In this document: in pieces, positions 13,251 to 64,000 of the stretch
Layout of the letters: every line of letters starts with the position of its first letter
Numbering within the stretch: the first letter of the stretch is position 1
DNA from: Marsupella aquatica
Taxonomy: Eukaryota > Plantae > Marchantiophyta
Assembly: GCA_973895155.1 (NCBI GenBank)
Contig: OZ316892.1
Span: 30,262,932-30,326,931 of the forward strand
Direction of reading: 5' to 3'
DNA length: 64,000 nucleotides
Translations under genes and position numbers: made by a program
Notes under the pieces: model-generated
What the model saw: only the letters and a program-made list of their open reading frames with translations
Told to the model about the DNA's origin: nothing
The model's database searches: none

Positions 13251-13410
13251 TGTACAGTGTGCATGCTACAGTGTACGGTCTATAGTGTGCATGCTACAGT
13301 GCACGACCTACAATGTGCATGCTATAGTGTACGATCTATAGTATGCATGCTATAGTGTACGACCTACAGTGTGCATGCTACAGTATACGATCTACAGTAT
13401 GCATGCTACA
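13251..13410 (+). repeat. Tandem ~27-bp subrepeats in a probable LTR fragment (~13160-13940)
   Basis: About six units of TACAGTGTGCATGCTACAGTGTACGACC-like sequence, followed by CTATAAATA at ~13521 and a ~100-bp direct repeat (CTTATGAAGTAGACCCAC...) at ~13632 and ~13816. Confidence 0.7.
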
Positions 13411-18076: not shown

Positions 18077-18460
18077 TCCTTGGTGTCCATAGATTGTCCC
18101 CTTGCCGGTCTATCCGGTTTTGAATTGGTGGTCGGCTCCCCTTCCTGCCTTGGCCTGGATTGTGTCTGTCCATCTCATCCACCTCTTGCTCCTGAGAGTC
18201 AGGCCGCTGTGCTCTCCCAGCTTCTAATAGGGCCTCAATTTGTTCTGCCCTCGTAATCGGCTTGTATGCCAATCCCTAGGTATTTAATTCCTTGCCGATG
18301 ATCGATGGCGTTGTGAACCCTGTCGGCTCTGCCACAACGCCTACAGAAAATCCACTGTCCCTGCTACTGCTCCCCACTTAGCCGTTTCATCCAATTGGTC
18401 TACATCCTTTACTTCCTCCGGAATTGCAGCTAAAAAGGTGGATTCTATTGTAAAGCAGTC
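18077..18460 (-). mobile_element. Inverted fragment of the family B PR/RT linker
   Basis: Reverse complement aligns to ~25990-26373 (YKPITRAEQIEALLEA...). Confidence 0.92.
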
Positions 18461-21400
18461 AGTTAAGTGGGTAAAGCAGGAAGGCACCCTAGGAACACCT
18501 TAGTATAGGGACAAAACAAGGAAAATATAAACAATTAGGGGCAACCATGGAACCCGGGCCGAGGCCGGAGGTAAGGACGCTGAGGGTGAAAACTCGATTA
18601 GGGTTAGGGCGCGTTAAGCGTCGGCGGCTAGGAAGGATCAACGGGAAGAAGGACCGGCAGAGGAGAGGGGTAAGGAGCGCTTGCAGGAGATGGTGGCTCA
18701 TTTGCAAGCACGAACTAGGCAGATGACTACGGGAGGCCAACTACTGTCAGCTGCTTAGGCAAGCACTCGGGGAGAGAGTAGATACCGACGATCGACCTAA
18801 GGAGGGTATGAGCAACGTCAATCAAGCGGCACATTTCTGGGGATGCCTGTTCGAACGGGCAACTGAGTACATCAAGACTTACGAGGACGAGGAATCAAAA
18901 AGGGCAGCTCGAGAACGGCAGGAGCTCGCTCGATTGTGGGAGCTGCAGAAGACGGCTTTCTTAGGAGGCAAACTCATCAAGGACGAGTTCCTGTGGACGC
19001 CTACTTCCAATCAACTCGACGATCTTCTGTTTTGCAAAGACAGCGTCGTTGGCATCCGAGAGGCCATCAAGAACTGCAATGACATACATTGGGAATTAAA
19101 GGGTAGCACGGAAAGGTGGACCCAGGCAACGGTGCTAGGAGAAACCTCCATGGCAACAGAGATGAAGAGGAAGGGAGCCGTCAACGATGAAGCCACCCCG
19201 GCAAAAAGAACAAGGTCGGCGGCACCAAAGAAGCCAGCCGAGCAGTAGAGCAGGAGGCAGGGAGAAGCCGAAGAGGAGGAGGTTGATCCCATCAAGGCCA
19301 TTCCAACCAGGGATGACACCTGGAAGGGCTGGGCGGCAACCCTACCAGTGGAGGTGCAACTACATTTTGCACGGGAGGAGGATGCATGCTTTACGGCCAT
19401 GCAGACCAAGAAGTACCAAGGCTTCATGGCCGGATCCGGCTTAGAGGTCTTTGTAAGATTACCATGGCTGAAGCCGGAGGTACCGGAGTCAGACCTATTA
19501 GAATTCGTGGGGTTTAGGGTTTAGGGTTTTGAGGTACCGAGACCAATTGCATGAGGATATATGGGAAGGATTTCTATCTTACTCCCAAGGTAATTGCCGA
19601 AGTGTTTGGCTTGCCGATAGGCAATAAGACCAAAGTTGATACCAGGAAGACCTTGCCTGACAAGGAGTTCCGGTCGTTCCTCAGGCCATCAACGAAGAAT
19701 GGCTTCTTCTGGAACACCTGCACCAACCCGCACATAGGAGAGATGATCGACTTCTTGCGGGTGACCATGCATTGTAACTTGCCGAGGGCAGAGATCGGCA
19801 AGGCACAGGTCTATCTGGCAGAGAGGCCAGACCCAAGCCGGGACTACAACGGGTACCTCCTCAACCAATTGAAGAAGATCTTAAAGGAGGAGCAGCAGGT
19901 AATCGGCATGGGGACCGTGTCGCGGCTTGGCTATCACATGCCGCTGTTGTGCCGGTATGCCAGAGGTCAAACTTTTGCCCCAGTACTTCCCCTGCAGGTA
20001 AGGGCACCCGAGGAAGCTCCAACGCCGAGGCCGTTGACTGAGAAGCCTCAACCACCTGTTAGCCCTACGATCGAGCAGGTGTTTAGGCCCAAGAAGGAGG
20101 ACTTGCCGATGCAGCAACCAGGCATGCAGAGTCTGCTGAAACTACTGGAGAAAGAAAAGAGATCGGCATCGGCAACAACAACGGCAACGGCAACAATGCA
20201 GGACACTACTACAGAGGTAGGCCTACACCGGCTCACAAGAGAAAACCCCTTTGCTGGAGACAAGGAGAGAATCAGGCCGGAATCCAAGCCAGGTGTTCGA
20301 ATGTATGTGGGAATCTCAAGCTCCGAATCTGAGGCAGAATTGCCTGAAGCTCCTACCGACGAAGAGGAGAGGGAGAAGCCGGACGTCCAAGAAGTAGAGG
20401 AGGCAGTGGAGGACTGCAGCCATGATAATTCCGGCTATGGGTCGGACCATCATGTTCCAGGAGTAAGGACCTGTGGCCGGTTTGTCCCCACACTTCCAAG
20501 GGTAGTGCGAGGGGACCCCAACCAGCAGAGTAGCCCTGAGTCTCCCCCACCAGATGTTGCTCCCCCGAGCTTTGACGGCATAAAACAGACGGTGCAGGAA
20601 TTTTAGGAGCGAATCAGGCAGGAAGAGGAGGCAGCCCTGGCTAGGGAAAGGATTTACCAGGAGGAGATTGGCCGGAGGACATCAGGCGGCTAGCCAAAAA
20701 AGGAAGCAAACCTCTAGCCACGATTGAAGAGATCCGCAAGACGGCTTGGGAGCAGAGGCCGCGATGGGCGATGCCGATCACTTCTACTTACTCCACCTAC
20801 GCTAAGAATAGAGCCATGGAGTATGGTGAGATGTGTGGGGAACTTGCGCTCAGCATCTTTGGAGAGGAGTTGGAGGTAGGACCCTTTTTCCATAGGGAGC
20901 AATTGGAGAAGCACCAATTAGAAGAAGCGGTGGCTTTAGAGAGAAGCAAGAAGGACGAGGTCATTCGGCGGCTTAGGAGGATGGAAGCCGCGATTGAAGA
21001 TCTAAGGGCGGCCAAGAAAGCCCAAGATGAACTGCGGATTAAACGGCATGAGCTGAACATCATGCAGGGGCAGTTGGACACCGCGCAGGCTGATAATCAA
21101 AATATCAAGGATAAACTGACTCAGACGCAGGGAGAGTTGGCCGACACGATCAAAGAGAGGGAGAAGTGGAAGCGAGAGCTGAAGAATACAGAGGAGGCCC
21201 ACATAACAGCCAACAGTCGGGCCATGGCGGAGACCCAAAGAAAGGAATGGGCGTTGAAGGGGGAGCTCGAGAAAATCCGCGGAGCCCTTGAGCAGAAGGA
21301 GGCTGAGTTAGGGAAATCCTATCAAGGGATTATGGCGCTGCAGCAGGAGCTTGCGTCCCTGACGGCCAGCTTCAAGGCCGACCTAAGGGAGAAGGACGAA

Positions 21401-23104
21401 ATGCTCGATCAGACTTATGCCAAGATGAACCAGATGGAGTCTGTCATCATTGCAGAGCTCGACAAGGAGCTAAGAGCAACCCGGGAGGAGAGGACTACCT
21501 TGAAACAAGAACAGGAGGAAGCCCAGAAGGAACTAGAGGAGGCGCGCAAGGACCTGGATGAGACCCAGGAGGAGTTGGAGGAAATCACGAGGAAGATGGA
21601 GAACCTCCAGCGGCGGGCCGACAACCAAACGGAGCGGCTGAAGAAACAAGCCGCAGTATTTAAGTGCTTGTCTTCATCAGGCCCAACTCCAATTGGGGCA
21701 ACCAAGTTACCAGGAGTGGTACTGGCCGAAGAAAAAGCCGCGCCACCTGCACCAGTGCCAGAAGTAAGTGGGAAGGGGAAGGGACCAGTGCCGAACCAAA
21801 AAAGAAGAAGAAGCGGAAACCTTCAGGGTCAAGGAGTAATCCGACTCCACAAGCCGTGGTGACCAAGGAGGTAGAACCAGCACCATCCTCCGGCATGAAT
21901 ACGGCAATAGATCCCGCTATCATCACAGGTGGGGGTGGTGCGGCCCAAGCCGAACTACTCAGTAATGAGGCCGGTATCCCAGATCCGCCTCTTGAGCAGG
22001 CCGGGGAGATCGTAGCCGAGGCTGAGGCCGTAACCGATTCCCGAGCCGATGCCGACGCCGATGGTGGACCCAGTCAGGCCGATGGAGAGTTGACTCAGTC
22101 AAGGGCAGGTAATCTGTCAGAGAATGAACCTACGGCAGTGACTGAGGAGGAAGCATTGGGGGCGTCCATTAAGGATCCACCACCGGTGTCGTGACGGTGC
22201 AAGGGCGCCGTTCCTTTTAGGAAGGGCGGACGTGGAGGGAGGAGGCGTGAGTGGGCAGGGCGGGCGCTGATCTCCAAGTTTAGGATTAGGATCAGGACCA
22301 GGAGCGGCCCTGACACTTAGCTTAGTGGGATTGCGGTTCCACTGGTAGGAGCAACACTTGTGCTCCTGCCTTGCTGTACATAGGTAGATTCGGGCAAGTA
22401 GATTACTGTTAGGTAGATTAGGCTTACGATGCAAAGAATGGCGGATCCACTACCAGGATAAGTACCTGGGCAGCGGGGAGCTCAGGGCCTCTTCTTTAGC
22501 AAGTTTTTAGTTTGCACCAGCCGGGCTGGGATCAAGTAGTACGAGAAGCTCTCGGTTAGTCATACTGTGACCCTTGTGTATATTCATGTTTCCTCATGCC
22601 TAAGAGCTGAATAGAGTTGGCCTCACGGCTTAGTTCGCAGAGCTTGTGTATGAGATGTACTGTTTGTATGGCAAGCGCATGGTATGACTCAGTCAGAATG
22701 AGTCATTTTGCTATTTGTGTGTCGCATTAACTTGTGTGAAGAGTGCCCACATCAACAGAAGGAAGGAAAGTAAGCAGGGGAGTGAGAGTTGGATGTGTCG
22801 AGCTGAGAGAGGTCTTAGCGGCTTAACCAAGCCTATTGGGGATCATTCCGGCGGCGAAATCCAAACATACCTAACAAGACGGAGGGGAAGACAGAGGAAG
22901 GCCTAGATTAGGCCGGCTACGTATCTCATGACCCGATGAAGGATCTGTCCAGTATATGTGTGTAAAATGTTAATAGTAGTAGTAGAAGGTTAGCAGCGTC
23001 CCATGCCGCTAAGCCGCGGAAACGGCCTCGCCAAGCGCGAAACCTGCGGGAATCGGCTTGAGCTGGGGGTTTCTTGGGTTTAGGGAGCCATGGGACGCAC
23101 CACA
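18460..23104 (+). mobile_element. Family B giant 5' LTR (~4.67 kb; first 28 bp missing here) containing an accessory gene
   Basis: Ends GCACCACA immediately before the PBS and gag. The same sequence at 60756 extends 28 bp further to TGTGATGC (60728), a 7/8 inverted match to the GCACCACA end. Confidence 0.72.
18808..22194 (+). pseudogene. Family B accessory protein (~1100 aa when reconstructed): conserved domain, Pro/acidic linker and long coiled coil
   Basis: Pieces 18808-19248, 19249-~19510 (SGLEVFVRLPW...LLEFV), 19551-20606, ~20675-21800 (heptad-rich) and ~21800-22194, joined across two TAG stops and three frameshifts. Confidence 0.75.
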
Positions 23105-23108
23105 TTTT

Positions 23109-23126
23109 TGGCGCTAGATGGAGGGG
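23109..23126 (+). promoter_or_regulatory. Primer binding site of family B
   Basis: TGGCGCTAGATGGAGGGG, 4 nt after the LTR end and ~50 nt before the gag ATG. Resembles Tat-type PBSs. Confidence 0.8.
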
Positions 23127-29048: not shown

Positions 29049-29053
29049 GATGA

Positions 29054-31130: not shown

Positions 31131-31146
31131 GCCCTCCACTTAAATT
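31131..31146 (-). promoter_or_regulatory. PPT adjacent to the 3' LTR (PPT2)
   Basis: AATTTAAGTGGAGGGC on the minus strand, 2 nt before the LTR TG. Confidence 0.8.
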
Positions 31147-31694: not shown

Positions 31695-34268
31695 TCAAAT
31701 CTGTGTCCTAGATAAAACACCTTGAATAATCACATCCGGATAAGAAGGAATAATAGGTAGGAACGCTAAACACCTAAGCGACTTGAACCCTTGGGAAGCC
31801 GGTAGCATACATTGTTTTGTAATCAACTGCTCCCTTAGCTTAACAAGCTTCTTCTCATATTTAATTGGAATAGCAAACCCACCAGGACAAACCCAAACAT
31901 AGTATGGATAGGGCCATGGAATTTCCGGCACAAGGGGCGGAAATGGAGCTTGAGCTCGTCGAAGCATATACACCCAACACCAAATTTCGAACTCCGAAAA
32001 CTTATGTCGTCTGTCCTTATCAATGGGAGGAACCGCCTTCCCAGGTTCATATGTGCGAATCAAACTACGAATCCTCGGATGGGATGTCATTGGCAAAATC
32101 TGCTGCTGCTGCAAAATGCTCTCCATCTCCAGATGTCGAAAAGCTACTCGAAAATGTTTCTTCTCCCACCTGTGAATTGAAGCCAAATTAGGGATAGGAT
32201 TTCGGGGTGGCAAATCCACTGTATGCCGAAGTCGAGGAGGTACTCTGATAATGCGAGGGTCTTCGTCTTCTTCTCCATCACTTGGTGCTCCTATCCAACG
32301 GAAAATTACATCTGGCATAGCGGAAGGAATCACTGACTCCTTAACTGGTCGAATTGGCAATGTAACAGGAGACGAAGGAGCAGAAGGTTCGGGCTCCAGT
32401 GGTTCAAATTCTTCTCTTGCAACAGTAGCTGGTTGATCTGCAATGGGATGCATTGGTACTAAAACAGGAAGTTCTTCTTTAAAATTATCGCTAGGTAAAG
32501 AGACTTCCTGGTTAGTTCGATCTGTCAAAAGTACAGGAAGGGGTAGCTCGTCTGTTCCGATAGGTGCTTCTCCCTGTTCAAAATCCTGGGAAGATGCTTC
32601 AGGAAAGATCTGTCGACTGATAGCATGGCGCAACCGTTTCCAAGATTTTCGAGTATACGTCACTGAAAACTCCTCCCGAATGTTTTTATCCTCGTTTGTA
32701 GCCAATGAAACTGGTGCTGAGCTGGTTGTCGAAGCGGGTGTCTCGGGTACCAATATGGGTACAGATATACCCATATTACCAGATACCTGATTGCGACTCG
32801 GAAAACCAGCAGAGCCTCCTTCAATCAACTCATCTTCAGGAGAAACCCATTTTACAGGCGGAAATGAAGGAGCTCCTATCGCGGCTATTGCCTCATCTAA
32901 TTCCTTAGTTATATCCAAAGGAATCGATATGAGTGAACCAGGTGTAGACCAGGCAGGGTATCTTGCGACAGATTGGGGAGAAGTCACTGGTTCACCTACT
33001 TCGTCTATATCCACAATTGCATCCTCCGAATCAACTTTAACCAGCTTCACAATTTCTGAGCTTAATATTTCTGACTCCTGGACCAGAGGGATTTCACCTA
33101 TATTTGGGCTAGAACTAAGAGAGTCGGACGAATCATACTCCTGTAAAGCCTGCAAAGCATCACTATTTGCCTCTATGGGAACCAAAACAGGGGTAGAAGT
33201 AAATCCATCATACTCGTCCTCAGCAGTAGAATGTTGAAGAGGTTCCCCTGAAAAACCTTCTTCATCCACCCTCACCTCATCTTCAACATTCATCCGAGAA
33301 GCAGAATTATCCTGATCAACATCATAAATAGGCTCGGCAGCACAAGGTGAACACGAGAGTCGAGGTGACATAGAATGCTCCAACCCTGTTGGCATTGCTG
33401 AAGGAACATCTTCGGCAACTTGAGCCTCTCTTGGTTGGTGAAGAATCGGATCGTCACTCCCTTCAGCTGATGCTCTTGTCTCTTTCAATTTCCGAACTTC
33501 ACCCACCAGTTCAGGTTCCTCACAGTCGAGTATTGCACATAGCTCTACCACTGTGGAATTGGCTCGGACTTCTCGTACTTCAGGCATATAATTTGCTTCA
33601 CCGGTAGATGCTCTCTGATTGTTGCGATAAAAATCTTTTTCCAAGACAAGCAGACAGTCATACTTATGGTAAATGTGAGCTAAATAAGGGGCCAAGTAGG
33701 TACACCTTATTTTCCCCGTTTTCAGCCTGCTACGAAAATTTTTGACCTGAGTATGAATTACTCGGTGCAAAACCTTCGTCCAATTGATAGACTGCGTCTG
33801 TTCTAATGAACAGATCACCGTTGCAGCGAACGAAAGAGTGATGCGCGTCTGGCTTTCTGGGTAGAAAATTGGTGCCAGAAATCGAAATAGACGCTGCAGA
33901 GAATTATCTAAGCAGTCCGCCGCTAGCCATCCATTCCGCCTCTTGAAAGATCCTGGAGCGAAGAAGGATTCTACATAAACCCGAGGCTCACAATCAACCC
34001 TCTGTAAATCCTCGCCCTCCATCGGCGTCGAATAGACCTTCGCTATGAGCGCTTCAGTCCAAACACTGGGACGCGAGCGCACACCAATCCTTTCTTCAGC
34101 GTCCCAGACACCTTGATCGATAAGGCTGAATTCGCAAATCTTCCAAGGAAGTTGAAGCAGCTTCTTCAAGCCCATTTTTGCCAGAGCCGTCTTCAACTGC
34201 CGCCTATGCACTGCATTCGATGGAATGTCTGCGAGTATTGGTCGCGTCGTCAGCTCAGTCTCCGCCAT
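31695..34268 (-). CDS. Element E accessory protein (857 aa) at the 'env-like' position
   Basis: Intact ORF after pol. Its N-terminal domain (GLKKLLQLPW...WTEALIAKVY...NGW...FLAPIFYP...INW...YLAHIY) aligns by eye to the family D protein. No obvious signal peptide or TM segment. Confidence 0.85.
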   Translation of the reverse strand: MAETELTTRPILADIPSNAVHRRQLKTALAKMGLKKLLQLPWKICEFSLIDQGVWDAEERIGVRSRPSVWTEALIAKVYSTPMEGEDLQRVDCEPRVYVESFFAPGSFKRRNGWLAADCLDNSLQRLFRFLAPIFYPESQTRITLSFAATVICSLEQTQSINWTKVLHRVIHTQVKNFRSRLKTGKIRCTYLAPYLAHIYHKYDCLLVLEKDFYRNNQRASTGEANYMPEVREVRANSTVVELCAILDCEEPELVGEVRKLKETRASAEGSDDPILHQPREAQVAEDVPSAMPTGLEHSMSPRLSCSPCAAEPIYDVDQDNSASRMNVEDEVRVDEEGFSGEPLQHSTAEDEYDGFTSTPVLVPIEANSDALQALQEYDSSDSLSSSPNIGEIPLVQESEILSSEIVKLVKVDSEDAIVDIDEVGEPVTSPQSVARYPAWSTPGSLISIPLDITKELDEAIAAIGAPSFPPVKWVSPEDELIEGGSAGFPSRNQVSGNMGISVPILVPETPASTTSSAPVSLATNEDKNIREEFSVTYTRKSWKRLRHAISRQIFPEASSQDFEQGEAPIGTDELPLPVLLTDRTNQEVSLPSDNFKEELPVLVPMHPIADQPATVAREEFEPLEPEPSAPSSPVTLPIRPVKESVIPSAMPDVIFRWIGAPSDGEEDEDPRIIRVPPRLRHTVDLPPRNPIPNLASIHRWEKKHFRVAFRHLEMESILQQQQILPMTSHPRIRSLIRTYEPGKAVPPIDKDRRHKFSEFEIWCWVYMLRRAQAPFPPLVPEIPWPYPYYVWVCPGGFAIPIKYEKKLVKLREQLITKQCMLPASQGFKSLRCLAFLPIIPSYPDVIIQGVLSRTQI

Positions 34269-34613: not shown

Positions 34614-34629
34614 GCCCTCCACTTAAATT
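34614..34629 (-). promoter_or_regulatory. Internal duplicate PPT (PPT1) just after the pol stop
   Basis: Identical 16-mer AATTTAAGTGGAGGGC to 31131-31146. Confidence 0.75.
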
Positions 34630-43286: not shown

Positions 43287-44071
43287 TGGCTAGGTGGGGA
43301 GCTACACCAGAGATAGTGGATTTTCCTCGGGCGTTGTGGCAGAGCCGATAGGATCCACAACTCCGTCTATCATCGGCAACAAATTAAATACCAAAGGATC
43401 GGCTTACAAGCCGATCACAAGGGCAGAACAAATTGAGGCCCTGCTAGAAGCCGGAAGAGCACGACGGCCTGACCCTCAGGAAGCAAGAATAGATAAGATG
43501 CACGGGAAGAAACCAGAGCCGAGTCAAGAAAGGGAGTCGACAACCAATTCAAAACCAAGCAGAACGGCAAGGGAACAGTCTGTTAATAACCAGGGAGAAC
43601 CTAAGTCAACCAATTCGACTAGTTCTGCAGAGATTCCAGTCTATGGAGGTATGAGACTGGAGAGGCTGGAAGCCGAGTTGGACCCAAATTTGAAGAAGCA
43701 AATTAATATGATCCAAGCACGGCAACACCGGAAGCTAGACTTAGGAGAAAGAAGGGAACTGAACTTGGGGCAGGACCTAGCACCTGAGCTTGAGAAAGAG
43801 ATCAGTGAATTACTAATTGAATTTCAAGATGTGTTCGCATGGAGTCACCAAGATCTGAAGGGAGTAGACCCAAAACTAGGAGAACACCGAATCGATCTCA
43901 TGTTAGGGGCCAAATCATTTTGGCAACCCATTCAAAGGATGAACCCTAACTATTCCTTGATGGTCAAAAATGAAATGTGTCGAGCTGAGAGAGGTCTTAG
44001 CGGCTTAACCAAGCCTATTGGGGATCATTCCGGCGGCGGAATCCAAATATACCTAACCAACAGGAGGGGAA

Positions 44072-47000
44072 TGTAGTTTGCTATGAAGAACCAAAAACAC
44101 ATTTATAGGTCTTCAAACTCGGTATTCATTCCCGTAAAGAACAAGATGGGGGTGGTTTGATACATAAAAACACAAATGAGAGTTTAAGAACTCTCTTTAA
44201 CACATAGTAATCAGAATTGATTACTTTAATAAGGTATTTTGAAGATCGCTCCACAGCGGTGAGTAGTTTTCAATGATAACTCAGCATCAGGTAACCATAA
44301 ATTAATGAAAAGGAAATGATTAACAAAACACAAGAGAAAATAATCTCAAAGTACGCTAAGGGAGTCTGGAATAGACCAAGGTTACTCCTTAGACATAAGT
44401 CAAAATGAAAAGACTTAAGGACTCAAATCCACGTTTGCTTTTCAGATCTAAAATGCTTACTAGAGTACCTTTTAAAATGCCGTCAACATGTCTTATCCTT
44501 TCTTTCTAAGTGGTACTCAGATAAGATCTAAAAGGTAGCTACTTCAACATTTAGATGGTACTAAGCAACATGAAAGAAAATCCATCAATTTCAATGAGAC
44601 TTAAACTCAATGAGTTAACTTCAAGAACTCAAGAGATTGTAATGAGTCACCAATAAGGAATCTATCATTACAACTCAAAAGATTTGCACAAAAGGAATTT
44701 TACTTCCTGTGTTTATAATCATAGATAAAAACACAAGAAGGAGGTAAGTCTCTCCAAATGTTAAACCTGATCTCGAACTCATAGATTCATGATCAACTAG
44801 TTTAACACAAGGAAGAGGCAGAAATGCATAACTTAACCATAAACTACACTAGTGGTGGAGGGGTCTTATAGTAAAATCCTACAGGGTAAGAGGTCATAGA
44901 GTCGAAGAGACATGCCTCTTCATACTCCTCAAAAAGTCAAAACAGTGATTCAGTAAGTGAAAAGCCAAGAAATGGCTAAGTAAGAACCCGTAAAAGCGTA
45001 AAAGCGTAAAGACGTAAACTCGTAAAAGCATAAAAACGTAAAGGCGTAATCCGGTAAATGCGGTAGACTTAAAGACTTACCAAATTCAACTATTTTTAAC
45101 TTTCTACTCCTGGCTCGGAAAATTCTGAAATTTTTCCAGTGAGTTTCTCTACGTATAGACTATGTACTAAAGGAGTTTCATAGCTTTTAAAGCTCTAGAA
45201 CACATTTTGAAAAATAGGGAAAAATGCACTATTCTTAAAACTAATTAAAACACTTAGATTCTGCCTCAAGCTTGTTGTCGGATGTCGTCTGGTTCGAGTA
45301 GCTCCACTGCTGTGATAGTTCGATTCTGTGTAACTTCCATCAGCTCAGCTTGGCGTGAGGACCCTCGTGAGTAGGGTAGGCATCTCAATTGCCTTTCAGG
45401 ATACATCAGGGGCATTCTTCTCCTTAGATAACATATGTCTATTCGAAGAGCTTCTCTATATATCCCAATCACGTCATAATTATTGCAAGTAGCAGCATAT
45501 ACTTGGGGATAATGGTATAGAAATTCATCAGAGTTCAGCATCCTGGAATAGAAAGGGTGAAGCCTCCATTTGACATCTCTGAAATACCGGTTGAAGTTGG
45601 CTAGAGTTTGAGAGGTGACATTGTTCTAGATCCTCTGTTTCTCAGCTAATGAATTGGCTGAAACAAGGGTAACCTTGGGCTCTCGAGGAAGGTAAGCGTT
45701 CTGGGGAGAAGTAGATTTCTTACTCTGCATGAGAAAAGAAATCACAAAATCTAGGGCATAAGCTGCTAAATTTCCAAAATATGCTAGGGCTAAATCTGGA
45801 TCCTCCACTTCTACATCACCCTGAAGTAGCATCACAGCAAGAATGGGTCGGAAGTAGAGAGAGTCAGTCCAAAACTCGTCGAATTGTGCCATCTCCACTC
45901 TGGAAGTTCCACAACACCTGAGGTCGAAGATATAACTCGCCTCTGTCTTCTTGAGATAGTAGTATTTCCAAAATTCTCCAACCGGTGGTCTGTTGGCCTG
46001 CATAATCTTACAGGTCTCCACATACCTGTGCACTTGGGACTCTGGATGTCTCGGGTATCTACTCTCGATGGTGGCATTCCGAGGTGTTTGAGTAGATGAG
46101 GTGACAACTGCTACTAAGTTTGGATGGGATCTTAAGGCAGTATCAACATCTTCAAATCCCTACCTTGGGGATGACTCAAGAGAATTATCATAAGATCTAT
46201 AAGTTTCACCATCTGAGGGTGGATCGGAGTCTTCAGGTATATCTTCTCTGACGTAAGGGTGTTCATATTGTGTCCGATTGTAGGTGGGTCCTTCTGTGGG
46301 TTCATAGTTGGAATCAGGGCTGTAGGGTTGCGAACCTGGGCTAGGAGTGGGACTAGCAGTTGGACATTGTTGGATCAAGTTGCGGACCACAGATGCTATC
46401 TGTCGAGGTTCACACTGTAGTAGTTCTAACAAGTCATCCACAATGGCCACACAGCTGATACTATCTGTTACTGGAATAGGCTCACTTGTTTCTAGGGGAG
46501 GGGGGTGTACAGTGACAGGAGTACAGATCACAAACTCCATTGGTGCTGGTTCTCTTGGGGGAGAGGTTATTCTGACAGGGCTTAGCTGATCATGAAATGG
46601 TGATCCCAAACTAACAACCTCCATTCTCAAATTATTAACAGCATCATATAGTCCATCATCACTGCAACTGAGGAGAGATATCAACTTATCAATAAGCTGC
46701 TGATTCGACTCTGCCTTCGAAGGAGTGGACCTGGTGGTCTCATGAGGAGTAGCATCAGTTGGTGTAGCAACATCGTCTTGTTGATGAATGCTCCTTACTT
46801 CTTCAGCTTCTAGTGCATCTGCATCCATAGTTCGGCTAGGGAAATTCTCATTACTTATTGATTGGCAAACAACTTCCCTGCTATGCATAGGGGGATGTGT
46901 AGGGATTTCTAATGAAGTATCCTCCATAGGAACATCAGCATTCTCCTCAACGTTCTGATCATTCGAATTCAATGGGGTGACATGTACAATGTCCTCCATA

Positions 47001-48102
47001 TGAATTTCTTCTTCAATACCCAAGTCAATCAGGAGTAACCCCCTCTCTGTCTCTTCCTCCAGATATAAACAGTCATGAGTATAATAGAGCTGAGAGAGAT
47101 AATTCTGTAAACAAGTGGTCCTCCCTGCTTCCAAGCTCCTTACTTGATCCTTTATTACATTAAACAGAAGTAGGGCCCAATTTACTTTTATAGCTCCACT
47201 GTGAGCAGCTACAATGGTGTTAGCCAAGGCCACAGGACAGAGAGTTGGCTTTTTCGGATGAAGAATGGGTACCAGAAATTCCATGAGCACTCTCAATTCA
47301 GGATAAGTACACTGGGACAAGTTCCAACCATTCTTGGCATTTCGAGTTCCTGAGAAGTATGGAGCAGATAAGTCCTGCTTCTTGGAATATAACGCCTCTC
47401 CTTCTGACGGGCATCCAAAGGCGTAAGCAATTTGCTCAACAGTCCACAGGCTGGGGTGAGCTCGAATCGTTTGCCTGAATTCAATCGAGATGATAGTCCC
47501 CTTCACAAAATCCTGCAAGTAGGAGTCGAGCTCAACATTCCAGGGGATCCTGAGCAAGCGCTCCAATCCTAAGTGCTGTAAAGAGTCTTGTAAATTAGAA
47601 AGACTATCAGGCGCTCGTGGTATACGAGATGCCACTACTTTTAAGATTGCTAGAGCTTCAATTTGATACTGTTCCTTAGCACCCAGGTTCGCCATAGCTG
47701 CAACGGTGATTTGCGTGCTACGAAGGTTGCTTTCAAAGAGAAAGAGCAAGTGAATAGGGGTGGTGAAAATACAGGAGTGAGCGCCTGATCTCTGTGCTTG
47801 ATTCCTATCAAGGTATGAAGTCCCCAATCCATTTCTAAGTCCCGTTGCGAAGTTAGCCGTAGCGACGTAACGTGAACTTTCCTTAAACGCGTAAGGCATA
47901 AGCCATAATCCTGTATTGGCGTAAACTTGTAACAGCGTAAACCTGTAAACCCGTAACGTTCTTACGCGTAAATGCGTAATCCCGTTATAAAGTATACCCG
48001 TAGTTTACACTTGGCATTTTAACAGCAACAGCAGGCTTAAATACTGTAAAAAGTTTAAATTTTTCAGTAATTTCAGGTATTCGGTATTACCCAATACTCA
48101 CA
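44072..48102 (-). mobile_element. Family D giant solo LTR (4031 bp) carrying a protein gene, copy D1
   Basis: TG...CA termini, perfect 5-bp TSD GGGAA (44067-44071, 48103-48107), no terminal direct repeats, no gag/pol. Shares an exact 20-mer with the E LTR at the same offset. Confidence 0.88.
45266..47695 (-). pseudogene. Family D LTR-encoded protein, with two premature TAG stops
   Basis: Colinear with 61385-63946; stops at 46160 (CAG>TAG) and 45626 (TGG>TAG). Confidence 0.9.
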
Positions 48103-48326
48103 GGGAAGACAAGGGAAGGCCTAGATTAGGCCGGCTACGTATCTCATGACCCGATGAAGGATCTGTCCAGTATATGTGTGTAAAATGTTAATAGTAGTAG
48201 TAGAAGGAGGTTAGCAGCGTCCCATGCCGCCAAGCCACGAAAACGGCCTCGCCTAGGATGAAACCTGCGGGAATCGGCTTGCGTAGGGGGGTTTCTTGGG
48301 TTTGGGGAGCCATGGGACGAACCACA

Positions 48327-48586: not shown

Positions 48587-51500
48587 TGTCACGTCGTCAG
48601 CCTAGGCCTTAACCCGGGCTTTGGCTTAGACAGGCACATCCTTTGTCAAAATGAGGGTTCGGGCAGGGAGGGAGGCACGGAATGCACCTAACTCACGTAA
48701 ACTAGCGCTAAGTGCGCATATGGTCGTATACGGACACCTCCTAGGTATGGTTTGTGTTCCGCCGCCGGAATGTACCTCAGTCGATAGCAGGATCAACCCC
48801 GGCTTACGGGCTTCTAAGCCTTCGTGTTGTCCGCCTTCGATCCGGATTCAACAATATGGGTCCTCAACCCGGGCTTGCAACCACTTACCCGCAAGCTGCA
48901 CCCCGTGCACAACTTGGGTAGTGCGTTCGGCCAAGCGTTGGCACCTATACACGAGATTCACACATATACATACGCACAAGCATACAATCTCGATTTACAC
49001 GAAGGAAATAATGGGAAGGGATTTTACTACATAGGAGACATATGCGTACACTTAGTTGACCCGAAAGCTCTAGAATGTACAGGTCCAAGGCCGAGGGTGT
49101 ACACTACAACGGAGCCCGGCTCCGCACTCGCCCAGCGAGCTTAGTCCTACGCCCTCCCCTTGGTACTCTTTCACTCCCAGAGGTCGGGACTCCCCGCACA
49201 TACCGCGGATGTCCAACACTGAGACTAAAACCCCCCCCTTGCCTCTACCAAGGGGTGCACTAAATACTAAGGGCCGAGGAACAGAGTGCCCTCGTGCCCA
49301 AAGATTTGCTAACTAAGGTCCTAACTAAGCTGGCTGTCAGGCCGGAAAATGGCTTGTCTTATTAGAAGATCCTATTCTATGCAGGCTGGACAGCATGGTA
49401 GTGCTGCTTTAACTAGGGCAGGTGCTTATCCCTATAGCTTGATTTAGCTATTCCTAACTCTATTTTAATCCTACTCCACCGCTAATGCCTGGCACGCTTG
49501 CCAGAGCCGCCTGAGTGGGAGCGGCTATCCCGCTGCCTTCTGAGTCTGTCGGCATGCTGCTTGAGTAGCTGGACCTGGTCCAGCAGAGATTTGTTCTTTC
49601 GCTTTGCCGCGTCCGCCTCTTCCGCGGCCTCTTGGCATGCCTCTCCAGTTGCTGGGTGTCGCTCGTCAGCTTATCCACCAACTGGGCCTATTTCGTGGCT
49701 TCTCCTTGAAGCCGCACCACCTTTGTCTTCAGGGTGTCAATCTCGGCCGCGTCCCGTTGAGACCAAGAGTCAGCTTCCTCAAGATCCTTTTGCAAACTGA
49801 CGGATTGTCCCTTCAAACCGTCAATCTTGGTCCGGAGCCGTGCGATCTTGACGTCCTTTCCGAGCCCGGCCTGTTCTGCTAAAGCTGCCCAGTGTCCCGA
49901 GAGATCTGTTGAGAGAAATCTCCCAACAACCCGTTCAGAAATGTGCCCGACGCAAAGAGTTCTGGATGGTCTAGACTGTGTCCATCTGGATTTGGGCACG
50001 GGCAAACTCCAACCCGTGCGGGAGTAGGAGTGGACACATCCAGCCCTTGAGGTAAGTCGGTCAAAGGGGCTGGTTCCACTGGAGGTGGGCGGTTCTCCTG
50101 CACAACTACGGGGGGTGGCGGAATCTCCTCGACTACCTGGCATCTGCTTTGGGTATGGCTTCATCCGGCCCGGCTTTGATTGCATTGTCCCCATTGATCG
50201 CGTCTAAGGTTGCGATAACGTCTATGGGTATGCTTGGCGGGGCGGCAACGGCGGGTTGTGGGGCCGGGGTAGTAGGGCTTGCAGCTGCCAGACTTCGGGC
50301 CTCGGGCTGCGGTCGCCTTACCTGGGCTAGGAACACCCATTTTGACGGGGTCAGCTCGGGCTCGTTGATACACGGGAGGCTGCGGCGGTCAAAACGAGCG
50401 TACCACTTGATGATGATTTTGATGTGGCTAGCAAAGTACGCCCTTCCGCCAAGGTACAAAGTCTTTCTTCTTCGCTCCATCTCCTTGTGGAACTTCTTGA
50501 CGAAGAAGGACGTCCACTTCCTGGGCCGATAGTTCTCCACCTGGATGACCTGGGCGGCCGATATTTTGCCTCTGGGTTCCATCATGTGGAGGGCATACCG
50601 CTGGAACTCCAGGCGTTTTGCTACCTCTAGGATGAGGGATGTCCTCATTAAGAACCCATTGTCCACTACCCCCTCGGCCAGGAAGCTAGAGGACTGGTAT
50701 TTAGCTCCCTTGCCCCCAGGAGCCCGTGACTCTACTCGGTTTATCCCCTCGGGTAAGCCGAAAATCATTTTCAGACGTGCCTCATTGAGACACATCACTC
50801 TCCCGTGCGCTCGGGTTTGTTGACGGGCCTCGTCAAAGTTTTGAATGAACTCCGTCATATCCTGCCCGTAGTACCTGCTTCCGTTCCAAGGGAGAGAGGC
50901 GAGGTGCTCAAACCCTTGGGTCTTCAGATAGCATGCATGCTTGGGGTGGAGGATGTTCTTGTGAACATTGTCCCCATGCGATGTATGGTCAGCTTGGCTA
51001 CCGCAACCGTGGCCAAATGCAACCCGGATACGGTTGCGGGTTCCTTCCTCTTCCTACCCCGAGATTGATTCCTGGGGTGACTAGAAGAGGGGGACATCTC
51101 ACCTTCCTCTCGGTCAGGTGGTGGTAGCGCGATTGCCGTGAGTATTGGTGTTGGGGCCGCTAGAGTTACCGTGTTATCCCCTCAGGCTTGTTGGAGTGGT
51201 GCTGGGTTGTTCGGCGCTTGTTGAGTTGTACCCCGTGGCTGTCAATTCAGAGGAGGGTGAGCCTCCTCATCTTCGGAGCTAGTATTCACCGCATTCACCA
51301 TGGATCGTACTTGGAGAGGTGGTGGGACCGGTGGCAGGGACCGGCTTGGCTGAGGCCGAGGAGGTGTAGGTACGAGTATGGGCACGGGTTGGCCGGCCCT
51401 GGTCGTTGATGGTAGAGTTGCCATGAAGTTTTGCAGGTGCCGGTGGAGGTTTTCCGAAGCAAGTGCAGATGGCGATATCGACCGGGTAGTGTTGAACTTG

Positions 51501-52133
51501 CTGTTGATGATAGCCTAGACTCGAGCGGGGATGTGGTTGAAGTGGTGTCGCTGCAAGTCGATCGTGCCCGAGAGAGTGAAGACCGCGTCCGGGAGTCAAA
51601 GCAATGCTTCCCAGAAACCGATATATTTGCCTCCGTCGAAGAAGTACCCTGATACCTCTTCGGGTTGGTAAAGCTCGCTCTGGGACGGGTACTCAAAGTT
51701 AAGGAGATAGTGGTGGCGGCCTGCTAGGCGGATGGCTCTCTCGTATTCACGTTTGATCTCGTACCGGCACGGGTTGGCGTGTTTTAATGAGTCGGCCAAG
51801 TGCCCTCCGATAGACGGGAACTGTGTCCAGAATTGTATGGCCAAACTGGAAAGGATCATGTGCAACATTCAGAGGAGATAGTAGGTGACTAAGGATAAGC
51901 AAGGGAGGTGGGGTCGAAGTTGGCACGTGGACTGAAGAACTGGTGCATTGCAAAGGATTGGCCCCCTCTTATACCCTAAGAGCTCATCGATCGCCCGACG
52001 CCTCCTCGTTGCTTATAAGCCAAACCTTTCACGCTCGCAGTGTACCAGCCACTTCGCCGGTCCAGGTCAGCTCGTGTCAGTGGCCGCCTCCTGGAGTTTG
52101 TTATACGGTGTCCTGAGGATAAGCAAAGAGGTA
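48587..52133 (-). mobile_element. Family C giant LTR-like unit, copy C1 (one end truncated)
   Basis: Starts TGTCACG flush against B sequence; colinear with 52134-~55890. Confidence 0.75.
49482..51868 (-). pseudogene. Family C LTR-encoded protein, fragmented
   Basis: ORF pieces 51596-51868, 50133-50858 (EFIQNFD...IFGLPEG...NGF...LEFQRYAL) and a coiled-coil tail; homologous to the C2 pieces. Confidence 0.75.
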
Positions 52134-55100
52134 TGTCACGCCATCGGCTTCGGCCTTAACTCAGGCTTCAGCTTAGATAGGCACATCCTTCATAAATCTG
52201 AGGGTTTGGGCAGGAAGGGAAGCACGTAATGCACCTAATTCTCGTAAACTGGCTCTAAGTGCACATACTATTAAATACGGACACCTCCTAGGTATGGTTT
52301 GTGTTCCGCCGCCGGAACGTACCTTAGTCGATAGCAGGATCGACCCCAGCTTAAGGGCTTCTAAGCCTTCGTGCTGTCCGCCTTCAATCCGGATTCGATG
52401 ATACAGGTCCTCAACCCGTGCTCGCAACCACTTACCCGCAGGCTGCACCCTATGCACGTCTCGGGTAGTGCGTTCGGCCCCGGCGTTGCCACCCATATAC
52501 GAGAAACCCACACACATACACGCGCACATGCATACAATCTCGATTTACATGAAGGAAGTCATGGGAAAGGATTTTACTACAAAGGGGACATATGCGTACA
52601 CTTAGTTGACCGACAGCCCTGGAATGAACAGGTTCAAGGACGAGGGTGCACACTACAACGGAGCCCGGCTCCGCACTCGCCCGGCGAGCTTAGTCCTACC
52701 CCCTCTCCTTGGTACTCTTTCATTCCCAGAGGTCGGGACTCCCCGCACATACCGCGGACGTCCAACTTTGAAACTAAAAACCCCCCCTGCCTCTACCAAG
52801 GGGTGCACTAAATACTAAGGGCCGAGGGACGGGGTGTCCTCTCGCCCGAAGATTCGCTGACTAAGGTTCTAACTACGCTGACAGTCAGGCCGGAAAATGG
52901 TTGTGTCGTTATTAGAAGATCCTAATCTATGCAGGCCGGACAGCATGGCAACGCTGCTGTACCTAAGGCAGGTGCCTGTCCCAAGAGCCTGACTAAGCTA
53001 GTCCTAATCCTAATCTATTCCTACTCTGCCGCTAATGCCTGGCACGCTTGCCAGAGCCGCCTGAATGGGAGCGACCATCCCGCTGCCTTCGAAGCCTGTC
53101 ATTGTCCGCCTTGAGGAGCTGGACCTGGTCCAGCAGAGATTCGTTCTCCTGCCTCACCACGTCCGTCTCCTCTGCTGCCTCCTGACATGCCTCCTCCAGC
53201 TGCTGGGCGTCACTCGTCAGTTTACCCGCCAGCTGGTCCTGCTTCTCGGCCTCAGTTTGGAGCCGCACCACTTCGGCCTGCAGCGAGGCTATCTCCATCG
53301 TGTCCCGCTGGGCCCGTTCCTCGGCCTCCTCCAGGTCTTTCTGCCAGGTGACAGTTTGATTCTTCAAACTGTCAATCTGGTTCCGGAGTCGTGTAATCTC
53401 GGCCTCGTTCCCCGCTTTGGCCTGTTCGGCTAGGGCGGTAAGAGCGTGCGCCTTCGCTAACAACTCATCGGTGGCTGCAACCTTGGGTCGAAGTTGTAGA
53501 AGCTCAGCCTCTTGAACCGCAACTTTGTTCTTTAGGTACACGGACTCCACCCGGTACCGCTCTATCCTCTGAAGGGTCTCTGACTGGGCCCGACCTGCCT
53601 TTACTGCGGCGACCAACTCCTGATTGAAGAAACAGGCTACCTTCCTGGCCATGAACTCCCCGGTATCCCGGGCAATTTGACGGGAGAAATCCCCCAGAAG
53701 CCCGTTCAGAAACGTACCCGGTATGAAGAGTTCCGGATGGTCCAGGTTGTGCCTGTCCGGAGTGGGGCACGGGCAGACGTCAACACGTGCGGGGGCCGGG
53801 GCCGTGACATCCAACCCCGGGGAAGTATTGTTGGAAGGGGTTGGAGTGTCCTCCTGCAGCAGCATCTGATTCTCCGGATCAGCCGCCGGCGGGTCTTTGG
53901 GAGACCCGGGCTTGACTAAGACCTCCGCGGTACCGACCTCTGGATTTGGCCGGGTCGGTTGGATCGCATCTTCGGGTGCGGTTACCGACCCTTCCAGTAT
54001 TTCCTCGGTCACGGCTACCGCTACCTGTGGAGGTGGGGTGGGTGAAGCCTATGTGTCCGCTGGACTTCAGGCCTCGGGCTGAGGTCGTCGCTCCAAGGCC
54101 GGAAAAACCCACCGAGCCGGGACCAGCTTTGTAACGTTGACACGGGGGAGGGTTCGTCGATCAAACCGAGCGTACCACTCGAGGATGATCTCGATGTGGC
54201 TAGCAAAATATGCCTTCCCGCCTATGTACAGCGTCTTCCTTTGCCGCTCCATCTCTTCATGGAACTTCTTGGCGAAGTACGATGCCCACCTCCTAGGTCG
54301 ATAATTCTCGACCTGGATAACCTGGGCAGCGGAGATCTCACCCCGGGGTTCCATCAGGTGGAGGGCGTACCTTTGGAACTCCAGTCGTTCAGCTATCTTG
54401 GGGATGAGGCAGGACCTCATCACGAACCCGTTGTCCACTGCTCCCTCTGAGGGAAAACTTGAAGATTGGTACTTGGCTCCCTTGCCCCCGAGAGCCCGTG
54501 ATTTGACTCGATGGTCACCTTCGGGTAACCCGAAGATCATCTTGAGCCGTTCTTCCGTGAGGGACATACTCCTTCCCCGCAGCCAAGTATGTTGACGCGC
54601 GTCGTCATAATTCCTGACGAACTCCGTCATGTCCTCCCCGTAGTACTCAGGTCTTCAGGTACACCGCATGCTTGGGATGGAGGATGTTTTTGTGAACGTT
54701 TTCCCCCATGCGGTGCATCGTCACCTTGGCTACGGCTACCGTGGCCAACGGTAACCCGGATGTAGTGGCGGATTCCTTTCTCTTCTTCCCCCTTGACTGG
54801 CTCGGGGAAGGCGACACTTCCCCATCCTCCTGATCGGGCCTGGGTAGTGCCACTGCCGTTAGTAATGGGCCCGGGGTGGCCACGGTCACCATGTTGTCTG
54901 CCGGGGCCGCTCCTTGGGTCCGAGCAGGGGGCGGGGACGATATAGTGTCGGCCCCTGAGCGCTTGTTCCTCTGGGCCGCCTGGTCAAGGGTGGGGTAGCC
55001 TCGTCGTCATCGCTAAGATCCACAGCGTTGATGACGGAGCGTACTTGTGCTGGCTGGGCGATCGGTGGTGGGGTTTGGCTAGGCTACGGCTGAGGCTGAA

Positions 55101-60727: not shown

Positions 60728-61110
60728 TGTGATGCCTAGCCAGGAATCACTCGGCCAGTTAAGTGGGTAAAGCAGGAATGCACCCAAGAAACACCTTAGT
60801 CTAGGGACAAAACAAGGAAAATATAAACAATTAGGGGCAACTATGGAACCCAGGCCGAGGCCGGAGGTAAGGACGCTGGGGGTGAAACACGATTAGGGTT
60901 AGGGCACGCTAAGCGTCGGCGGCTAGGAAGGATCAATGGGAGGAAGGACCAGAGGAGGAGAGGGGTAAGGAGCGCTTGCAGGGAATGGTGGCTCATTTGC
61001 GAGCACGAACTTAGCAGACGACTACGGGAGGCCAACTACTGTCAGCTGCTTAGGCAAGCACTCGGGGAGAGAGTAGATACCGACGATCGACCTAAAGAGG
61101 GTATGAGCAA
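60728..61110 (+). mobile_element. 5' end of a family B LTR
   Basis: Begins TGTGATGC; 60756-61110 aligns to 18460-18815; interrupted by D2. Confidence 0.8.
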
Positions 61111-64000
61111 TGTGAGTATTGGGTAATACCGAAAACCTGAAATTACTGAAAAATTTAAACTTTTTACAGTATTTAAGCCTGCTGTTGCTGTTAAAATGCC
61201 AAGTGTAAACTAGGGTATACTTTATAACGGGATTACGCATTTACGCGTAAGAACGTTACGGGTTTACGGGTTTACGCTGTTACAAGTTTACGCCAATACG
61301 GGATTATGGCTTACGCCTTACGCGTTTAAGGAAAGTTCACGTTACGTCGCTACGGCTAACTTCGCAACGGGACTTAGAAACGGATTGGGGACTTCATACC
61401 TTGATAGGAATCAAGCACAGAGATCAGGCGCTCACTCCTGTATTTTCACCACCCCTATTCACTTGCTCTTTCTCTTCGAAAGCAACCTTCGCAGCACGCA
61501 AATCACCGTTGCAGCTACGGCGAACCTGGGTGCTGAGGAACAGTATCAAATTGAAGCTCTAGCAGTCTCAAAAGTAGTGGCAGCTCGCATACCACGAGCG
61601 CCTGATAGTCTTTCTAATTTACAAGACTCTTTACAGCACTTAGGATTGGAGCGCTTGCTCAAGATCCCCTGGAATGTCGAGCTCGACTCCTACTTGCAGG
61701 ATTTTGTGAAGGGGACTATCATCCCGATTGAATTCAGGCAAACGATTCGAGCTCACCCCAGCCTGTGGACTGTTGAGCAAATTGCTTACGCCTTTGGATG
61801 CCCGTCAGAAGGAGAGGCGTTATATTCCAAGAAGCAGGACTTATCTGCTCCATACTTCTCAGGAACTCGAAATGCCAAGAATGGTTGGAACTTGTCCCAG
61901 TGTACTTATCCTGAATTGAGAGTGCTCATGGAATTCCTGGTACCCATTCTTCATCCGAAAAAGCCAACTCTCTGTCCTGTGGCCTTGGCTAACACCATTG
62001 TAGCTGCTCATAGTGGAGCTATAAAAGTAAATTGGGCCCTACTTCTGTTTAATGTAATGAAGGATCAAGTAAGGAGCTTGGAAGCAGGGAGGACCACTTG
62101 CTTACAGAATTATCTCTCTCAGCTCTATTATACTCATGACTGTTTATATCTGGAGGAAGAGACAGAGAGGGGGTTACTCCTGATTGACTTGGGTATTGAA
62201 GAAGAAATTCATATGGAGGACATTGTACATGTCACCCCATTGAATTCGAATGATCAGAACGTTGAGGTGAATGCTGATGTTCCTATGGAGGATACTTCAT
62301 TAGAAATCCCTACACATTCTCCTATGCATAGCAGGGAAGTTGTTTGCCAATCAATAAGTAATGAGAATTTCCCTAGCCGGACTATGGATGCAGATCCACT
62401 AGAAGCTGAAGAAGTAAGGAGCATTCATCAACAAGACGATGATGCTACACCAATTGATGCTGCTCCTCATGAGACCACCAGGTCCACTCCTTCGAAGGCA
62501 GAGTCGAATCAGCAGCTTATTGATAAGTTGATATCTCTCCTCAGTTGTAGTGATGATGGACTATATGATGCTGTTAATAATTTGAGAATGGAGGCTGTTA
62601 GTTTGGGATCACCATTTCATGATCAGCTAAGCCCTGTCATAATAACCTCTCCCCCAAGAGAACCAGCACCAATGGAGTTTGTGATCTGTACTCCTGTCAC
62701 TGTACACCCCCCTCCCCTAGAAACAAGTGAGCCTATTCCAGTAACAGATAGTATCAGCTGTGTGGCTATTGTGGATGACTTGTTAGAACTACTACAGTGT
62801 GAACCTCGACAGATAGCATCTGTGGTCCGCAACTTGGTCCAACAATGTCCAACTGCTAGTCCTACTTCTAGCCCAGGTTCACAACCTTACAACCCTGATT
62901 CCAACTACGAACCCACAGAAGGACCCACCTACAATCGGTCACAATATGAGCACCCTTTTGACAGAGAAGATCTACCTGAAGACTCTGATCCACCCTCAGA
63001 TGGTGAAACTTATAGATCTTATGATAATTCTCTTGAGTCATCCCCAAGGCAGGGATTTGAAGATGTTGATACTGCCTTAAGATCCAATCCAAACTTAGTA
63101 GCAGTTGTCACTTCATCTACTCAAACACCTCGGAATGCCACCATCGAGAGTAGATGCCCGAGACATCCCGAGTCCCAAGTGCACAGGTATGTGGAGACCT
63201 GTAAGATTATGCAGGCCAACAGACCACCGGTTGGAGAATTTTGGAAATACTACTATCTCAAGAAGACAGAGGCCAGTTATATCTTCGACCTCAGGTGTTT
63301 TGGAACTTCCAGACTGGAGATGGCACAATTCGATGAGTTTTGGACTGACTCTCTCTATTTCCGACCCATTCTTGCTGTGATGCTACTTCAAGGAGATGTG
63401 GAGGTGGAGGATTCAGATTTAGTTCTGACATATTTTGGAAATTTGGCAGCTTATGCCCTAGATTTTGTGGTTTCTTTTCTCATGCAGAGTAAGAAATCTA
63501 CTTCTCCCCAGAACGCTTACCTTCCTCGAGAGCCCAAGGTTACCCTTGTTTCAACCAGTTCATTAGCTGAGAAACAGAGAATCTGGAACAATGTCACCTC
63601 TCAAACTCTGGCCAACTTCAATCGGTATTTCAGAGATGTCAAATGGAGGCTTCACCCTTTCTATTCCAGGATGCTGAACTCTGATGAATTTCTATACCAT
63701 TATCCCCAAGTATATGCTGCTACTTGCAATAATTATGACGTGATTGGGATATATAGAGAAGCTCTTCGAATAGACATATGTTATCTAAGGAGAAGAATGC
63801 CCCTGATGTATCCTGAAAGGCAATTGAGATGCCTACCCTACTCTCGAGGATCCCCACGCCAGGCTGAGCTGATGGAAGTTACTCAAGCTCGGACTGTTAC
63901 CCTCGTGGAGCTACTCGAACCAGAAGACATCCGACAACAAGCTTGAGGCAGAATCTAAGTCTTTTTAGTTAAGTTTTAAGAATAGTGCATCTTTCCCTAT
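61111..64000 (+). mobile_element. Family D giant LTR, copy D2 (runs off the window)
   Basis: Begins TGTGAGTATTGGG, the reverse complement of the D1 end; colinear with D1. Confidence 0.9.
61385..63946 (+). CDS. Family D LTR-encoded protein, uninterrupted frame (853 codons)
   Basis: Open frame inside the LTR; N-terminal domain homologous to the E accessory protein. The codon matching D1's ATG is ACG (61517-61519). Confidence 0.85.
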   Translation: MGTSYLDRNQAQRSGAHSCIFTTPIHLLFLFESNLRSTQITVAATANLGAEEQYQIEALAVSKVVAARIPRAPDSLSNLQDSLQHLGLERLLKIPWNVELDSYLQDFVKGTIIPIEFRQTIRAHPSLWTVEQIAYAFGCPSEGEALYSKKQDLSAPYFSGTRNAKNGWNLSQCTYPELRVLMEFLVPILHPKKPTLCPVALANTIVAAHSGAIKVNWALLLFNVMKDQVRSLEAGRTTCLQNYLSQLYYTHDCLYLEEETERGLLLIDLGIEEEIHMEDIVHVTPLNSNDQNVEVNADVPMEDTSLEIPTHSPMHSREVVCQSISNENFPSRTMDADPLEAEEVRSIHQQDDDATPIDAAPHETTRSTPSKAESNQQLIDKLISLLSCSDDGLYDAVNNLRMEAVSLGSPFHDQLSPVIITSPPREPAPMEFVICTPVTVHPPPLETSEPIPVTDSISCVAIVDDLLELLQCEPRQIASVVRNLVQQCPTASPTSSPGSQPYNPDSNYEPTEGPTYNRSQYEHPFDREDLPEDSDPPSDGETYRSYDNSLESSPRQGFEDVDTALRSNPNLVAVVTSSTQTPRNATIESRCPRHPESQVHRYVETCKIMQANRPPVGEFWKYYYLKKTEASYIFDLRCFGTSRLEMAQFDEFWTDSLYFRPILAVMLLQGDVEVEDSDLVLTYFGNLAAYALDFVVSFLMQSKKSTSPQNAYLPREPKVTLVSTSSLAEKQRIWNNVTSQTLANFNRYFRDVKWRLHPFYSRMLNSDEFLYHYPQVYAATCNNYDVIGIYREALRIDICYLRRRMPLMYPERQLRCLPYSRGSPRQAELMEVTQARTVTLVELLEPEDIRQQA

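Follow-up and report, generated by a model that had tools for sequence, protein, structure and literature searches.

The 64,000-nucleotide stretch of Marsupella aquatica contig OZ316892.1 that we analyzed (the window) is a nest of LTR (long terminal repeat) retrotransposons belonging to the Ty3/gypsy group, with gag, reverse transcriptase, RNase H, integrase, and chromodomain sequences identified by Pfam. The Athila-like elements, Streptophyta neighbors in the Atlas, and CpG depletion point to a land plant. One component of this nest, the 4031-bp unit D1, is very probably a solo LTR that holds an accessory gene under selection, as a preliminary description of this DNA had proposed. We draw this conclusion because D1 has a target-site duplication (TSD), an empty counterpart site, and varied flanks, because the ratio of nonsynonymous to synonymous change (dN/dS) in the genes is 0.09-0.28, and because a primer-binding site (PBS) and gag lie directly behind the related family-B unit. 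Throughout, D denotes the element under study and B, C, and E the neighboring families or elements. We oriented D1 by the direction of its gene, on the model of B.

44072..48102, minus strand: D1, 4031-bp solo LTR with TG...CA ends and a TSD, without gag/pol and without an internal terminal repeat
44067..44071, unstranded: left target-site duplication, GGGAA
48103..48107, unstranded: right target-site duplication, GGGAA
45266..47695, minus strand: D1 accessory gene, 809 codons, premature stops at codons 512 and 690
61111..64000, plus strand: D2, a second D copy, cut by the window end, in a family-B LTR
18460..23104, plus strand: B1, family-B LTR (first 28 bp missing) with a broken gene from 18808 and the empty D1 site
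23109..23126, plus strand: PBS-like sequence behind B1, then gag (from 23171) and pol

A solo LTR is recognized by TG...CA ends, a 5-bp TSD, the presence of multiple copies, and the absence of an internal repeat. D1 has TG at 44072, CA at 48102, and GGGAA on both sides, so the ends described earlier hold. Its flanks match 22793-22889 (93.8%) and 22885-23104 (92.0%), which belong to a family-B LTR without the insertion, and this uninterrupted copy has one GGGAA at 22885-22889. We checked the insertion ends with contigs from four sequencing runs in two studies. Contigs from three of the four runs join 44066 to 48103, and in all four runs depth rises about 10- to 17-fold at 44072, a summed contig depth that does not equal copy number. 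The loose ends at this position agree at only 0.46-0.57, indicating varied flanks. Because depth jumps and the loose ends disagree, we consider 44072 a real terminus at many sites; contig placement over the entire D1 unit was dominated by its family-B flanks. Pfam and translated searches detected no gag or pol within D1, again as first described. We found no terminal direct repeat inside the unit, and its ends form only an imperfect inverted repeat. Separately, one contig leaves D at 44109, 38 bp inside its end, with the same foreign continuation in all four runs; it represents either a shared insertion or a family with a common terminus.

The D gene begins 408 bp from one end of the unit and stops 1.19 kb from the other. 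D2, whose far end is predicted at about 65141, beyond the window, is 96.7% identical to D1 over 2891 bp. Its gene of about 810 codons had been called uninterrupted, and its frame is indeed free of stops (61214-63946, with the gene part at 61517-63946), but the start ATG is missing, and no in-frame ATG comes before codon 138, which already lies within the conserved domain. Three relatives of 808 aa (P0001, P0024, and P0025), 67% identical over their full length, have a methionine at the homologous start. Comparing 45269-47695 of D1 with 61517-63943 of D2 gave a dN/dS of 0.28 (confidence interval [CI] 0.18-0.43), against 0.89-1.25 for controls; by this measure the D family gene is under selection, with both window copies damaged. 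Taken part by part, the ratio excludes 1 just in the C-terminal third (0.19) and in the linker (0.39); the N-terminal domain (0.46, CI 0.13-1.91) has too few changes. Synonymous divergence between D1 and D2 climbs from 0.03 in the N-terminal domain to 0.13 in the C-terminal third, a gradient suggesting a recombinant LTR.

Family B supplies the best evidence for such a unit being a 5' LTR with an internal gene. B1 ends with CA at 23104, and TTTT, the PBS-like sequence, and gag-pol follow in order; the B gene runs from 18808 in the same sense as gag. We saw no paired LTR copy for B, and the unit of about 4.67 kb was pieced together from two copies (93% identical where they overlap).

60728..61110, plus strand: 5' terminus of another B LTR, host of D2, with the start TGTGATGCC common to C2
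52134..56116, minus strand: C2, a 3983-bp TG...CA unit with a broken gene, without TSD or PBS
48587..52108, minus strand: C1, a diverged, 5'-truncated C copy missing its 5' 223 bp

The preliminary description had assigned the same layout to B and C. Their genes do occupy the same position, but C2 yielded neither a matching TSD nor a PBS when we looked for them; its first nine bases are those of B, with which it also has 38 bp in common close to the opposite end. The LTR-with-gene pattern is thus good for D, good for B, and by analogy only for C. The dN/dS was 0.09 for the C domain and 0.19 for a B pol control. An extra selected N-terminal frame of about 145-190 aa, the first open reading frame (ORF), precedes the shared domain in B (18808-19248, dN/dS 0.16) and C (55087-55650, dN/dS 0.26), and a coiled coil follows it. 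The D and E proteins begin with the shared domain, and the C-terminal domains are unrelated.

To place the protein, we considered its N-terminal domain together with that of element E.

47006..47695, minus strand: D1 N-terminal domain, predicted fold matching VANC21, distant kin of PF20167/PF03078
29739..43286, minus strand: E, a full-length Athila-like element with 1390-bp LTRs (6 differences), TSD TGGCT, and gag-pol
31695..34268, minus strand: internal accessory gene of E, 857 aa, located between pol and the 3' LTR, with a homologous N-terminal domain

The domain had been proposed as common to all of these proteins. Between D and E the homology is clear (tblastn E 5e-23). The link from B and C to D/E is moderate, with a profile-profile probability of 65% (E 6e-5, 141 columns) and scores of 16.9 bits for B and 10.2 bits for C2, each above 200 shuffles, but the C1 score is equaled by three shuffles. 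A protein search with C1 returned nothing. The suggested likeness to a "putative plant transposon protein" (PF20167, Transposase_32) survives as distant kinship: the Atlas neighbors are PF20167 clusters (similarity 0.91, 163-165 shared features), but the D and E proteins match 0 Pfam families and stay far below the PF20167 gathering score of 45 bits, and two of 70 relatives score 15.7 and 17.2 bits. These comparisons support treating the D/E protein as distant kin of PF20167 and not as a member.

The only whole-domain structural match to the predicted D N-terminal domain was VANC21 (PDB 9lnj/9lnk), at 9% identity. On this model, true homology to the fold of VANC and the plant mobile domain (PMD) is probable; by sequence, the protein belongs to none of VANC, PMD, or PF20167. 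A viral fold library gave no match (TM score at most 0.18), and a PDB sequence search with an alignment gave coiled-coil noise and no VANC21 among the best 60 of 67 matches. The C-terminal 309 residues of D have a predicted fold of pLDDT 34 from an alignment of five rows, and their Atlas matches are at chance level. We rejected an envelope-like role, as there is no membrane stretch (highest 19-residue Kyte-Doolittle mean 1.44 in D2 and 1.48 in E). Scans for relatives in context found none in viral contigs and one 3-kb contig, L001, in metagenomes. Positions 217-2103 of L001 encode a distant relative with the domain, a coiled coil, and a basic tail. Behind it come about 950 bp of non-coding DNA, and the word TCCGG is not enriched there; the contig is too short to place an LTR.

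Element E offers a possible origin for the D arrangement, through two copies of its polypurine tract (PPT).

34614..34629, minus strand: upstream copy of the E PPT 16-mer, right behind the pol stop and ahead of the accessory gene
31131..31146, minus strand: terminal E PPT (identical 16-mer), before the 3' LTR

E has contiguous domains for reverse transcriptase, for RNase H, and for integrase, an extra ORF in sense at its 3' end, and a 5-bp TSD; its Pfam domains include no aRH and no chromodomain. Its PBS is presumably of the tRNA-Asp type. The motif array of the E LTR is repeated before the accessory gene, and D presents the same order within one repeat: array, gene, array, and about 0.9 kb of AT-rich LTR. 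The layout of E is likely ancestral. Because the PPT sets the 5' end of the LTR, priming shifted to the upstream copy would turn the E layout into that of D. Judging from these sequences, the chances that D arose by such a capture are about even. In the E pol-gene gap we found no old LTR start beyond the PPT and array. An extra PPT has been published for Athila4 and Calypso, and arrays upstream of the extra ORF for Sireviruses (available text of PMC2829016), so these parts are already known; our literature search did not find the capture of PPT, array, and accessory gene into a plant LTR.

The arrays are candidate targets for the protein.

47870..47985, minus strand: D array 1, CpG-rich TTACG-motif cluster upstream of the gene
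44989..45062, minus strand: D array 2, CpG-rich tandem cluster of a TTTACG 8-mer downstream of the gene

TTACG occurs at 20-23 per kb in the two D clusters versus 0.8 in the ORF. In E the motif is GACGCT/AGCGTC; of its 44 sites, 41 fall outside coding sequence (in the two LTRs, the 5' leader, and the pol-gene gap), and 14 are arranged as spaced palindromes (GACGCT-N5/6-AGCGTC). None of 400 shuffles reached the enrichment seen in D or E. The observed/expected CpG ratio is 1.07-1.32 in the D arrays, much of it due to the motif itself, versus 0.34 in the remaining LTR; the window as a whole is CpG-depleted (0.66), and a hypomethylation footprint from CpG content is equivocal. VANC proteins bind short tandem motifs in the non-coding DNA of their own element, and these motifs vary by family (PMC5735166, in part). 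By that comparison and the predicted fold, anti-silencing through motif binding, with the arrays as candidate targets, is a tentative proposal that we rate slightly short of even.

Taken together, these results suggest a model in which D1 is the solo LTR of an Athila-like Ty3/gypsy element with a conserved, predicted anti-silencing gene of the VANC/PMD fold, a reading that, as a whole, we judge may equally be right or wrong. The ancestor would have resembled E, in the order pol, PPT copy, motif array, gene, PPT, and LTR with motif array. A shift of plus-strand priming to the upstream PPT would have made array, gene, and old LTR into one 4-kb LTR, placing the gene in U3, and LTR-LTR recombination would then have left D1 as a solo. 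By analogy, the accessory protein may work like VANC: it would bind the arrays flanking its own gene and the LTR promoter, forming a positive loop like that of VANC on VANDAL. With the gene, its upstream array, and the targets all in the LTR, an intact solo at another place in the genome would still supply the factor and still be a target for it. In D, array 1 is retained upstream of the gene, and in C1 and C2 the unit itself contains a TATA-like box, about 105 bp ahead of the ATG. The broader generalization is doubtful: that Athila-like elements encode a VANC-fold anti-silencing protein (the Transposase_32/ATHILA-like domain), that several families moved the gene into the LTR by PPT shift, and that an intact solo is a self-contained switch keeping other copies unsilenced.

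A number of results weigh against this model, and many of them bear on its rivals. Neither D1 nor D2 encodes an intact protein from the canonical start, and C1 scores 1.1 bits for the shared domain, a value that three shuffles also reach. Pfam searches found no sequence match to DUF1985 or PF10536, and the Z-score of the VANC21 match is middling. B and C have weak 5-mers (reached by six and five of 400 shuffles) and no clear array, and the CpG sites of the arrays differ between D1 and D2 at least as much as those of the ORF. A pyrimidine tract and AG directly precede the D start codon and could be a splice acceptor. Published excerpts report that ATHILA ORF2 is made from spliced RNA (PMC7197481) and that MMTV sag is driven mostly by promoters outside the LTR copy (PMC12789967). 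Much of this would suit the same anatomy with another job, in which the protein is an ordinary transcriptional trans-activator or an RNA-binding or particle-associated factor (Tat/Tas- or Athila-ORF-like) made from spliced genomic RNA. Host factors would then bind the arrays, as has been proposed for the repeated motifs of Sirevirus, the place of the gene in the LTR would be a by-product, and solos would be silent. We consider this unlikely, given that the one structure matching the whole domain is that of an anti-silencing protein bound to DNA, that D and E motifs differ as expected of family-specific targets, and that C1 and C2 keep their TATA-like box.

The remaining difficulties concern the LTR itself. 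Nowhere did we see gag-pol flanked by a pair of 4-kb LTRs, and 24 of the 31 loose ends at 44072 showed no PBS or PPT, perhaps because contigs sharing only about 30 bases go unplaced. Outside the arrays, D also yielded neither a decayed PPT nor the start of an old LTR. D could instead be an internal-deletion product, with a short 5' LTR start joined through the arrays to an internal gene and a 1.2-kb 3' LTR. Its 5' block does align with the post-gene block (score 92, shuffle maximum 70), but the similarity is confined to the arrays, and the 115 bp before array 1 lack a counterpart (equal scores came from 52 of 300 shuffles), leaving a recent array-to-array deletion unsupported. D1 and D2 also share the 5' end and gene junction, and PBS and gag lie directly behind the gene-bearing B unit, making such a deletion improbable. 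The many insertion sites and the missing PBS/PPT consensus among the loose ends listed would also fit a complete, non-autonomous, DNA-transposon-like element with short imperfect inverted ends, a 5-bp TSD, and the accessory gene. This we regard as highly improbable: the D ends are just the imperfect inverted repeat usual for LTRs, D contains no transposase or integrase, homologues of its gene sit in the LTR retrotransposons E and B, and junction contigs with so short an overlap may go unplaced.

Compared with known systems, the solo-LTR reading with a VANC-like gene is closest to VANC itself, a transposon-encoded accessory gene with family-specific motifs whose likeness extends over the whole N-terminal domain. 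VANC, however, belongs to VANDAL, a Mutator-like DNA transposon, whereas the host here is an LTR retrotransposon with the gene inside the LTR, the motifs contain CG, and binding and demethylation are only predicted. Two papers, in their available parts, place the PMD proteins (MAIN/MAIL) and VANC in one structural group. PMD-A of Ogre is likewise retrotransposon-encoded and the MAIL2 motif is palindromic like that of E, but the fold link to PMD runs via VANC and Ogre extra ORFs are internal (PMC6317226, in part). E resembles Athila elements with "env-like" ORFs (PF20167/PF03078) in its sense ORF between pol and the 3' LTR, in its extra PPT, in having no extra RNase H that we could find, and in its Atlas neighbors (compare PMC11728184, available part); in contrast, our proteins fall below the Pfam cut-off without a transmembrane stretch, and the genes of D, B, and C sit within the repeat itself. 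Sireviruses share with E the CG-rich palindromic arrays in U3 and before the accessory gene, along with extra PPTs, but they are Ty1/copia elements with an internal gene, and the available portion of PMC2829016 proposes no element-encoded binder. MMTV sag has its whole ORF in U3 (PMC12789967, in part), and HIV nef, an LTR-overlapping gene, is named beside it as LTR-encoded; sag, however, is an unrelated membrane superantigen of an animal retrovirus.

Athila extra ORFs are a precedent for accessory genes (portions of PMC6317226, PMC11728184, and PMC11963269). Our literature search did not find a whole accessory gene inside a plant LTR, its sole match (PMC1560396) being a host gene inside an element, nor a link between PF20167/ATHILA and VANC, although the structural clusters of PMC13547354 may already group Athila-type domains with VANC/MAIN. 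Each part has precedent, and our literature search did not turn up their apparent combination, in which a plant LTR holds a VANC-fold gene together with candidate target arrays. The role of extra ORFs and LTR CG-motif arrays in plant Ty3/gypsy elements is a long-open question (available parts of PMC6317226, PMC11963269, and PMC2829016). Sequence-specific anti-silencing has been shown for VANDAL, and a 2026 paper, in the portion available, leaves Athila-type ORFs open (PMC12844716). Here a candidate fold and candidate words come together, TTACG in D and GACGCT-N5/6-AGCGTC in E. Solo-LTR formation is the main plant route for purging retrotransposons. An LTR carrying its own regulator would blunt this purge and, if the model is true, an intact solo, as a switch of promoter array, gene, and target array, would survive the very deletion that should have disarmed the element.

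Several minor observations concern the surrounding DNA. D1 (44072), D2 (61111), C1 (48587), and one B end (48327) are all inserted in family-B LTRs; in homologous B sequence the last three insertions fall into one stretch of about 260 bp, close to where the B gene starts, a hint of target preference. Rearrangement of family-B DNA is extensive: a pol piece in inverted orientation adjoins the B1 LTR (18077-18460), a 99% copy of part of the B LTR gene stands in place of the pol end (28088-28695) and is followed by an inverted LTR-end/PBS/gag piece (28088-29054 in all), and a second B pol is directly joined to an LTR end at 43975. Three copies of TTTAGGG, a plant-telomere-like 7-mer, lie at the B1 frame break in the conserved domain (19510-19529), possibly a healed break. 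Elsewhere, the window contains the 3' half of a chromodomain-bearing element (1-2496), a gag-pro-reverse transcriptase fragment of another, non-chromovirus family (2984-5785), and a tandem array of period 14/28/56 within AT-rich DNA (13253-13410).
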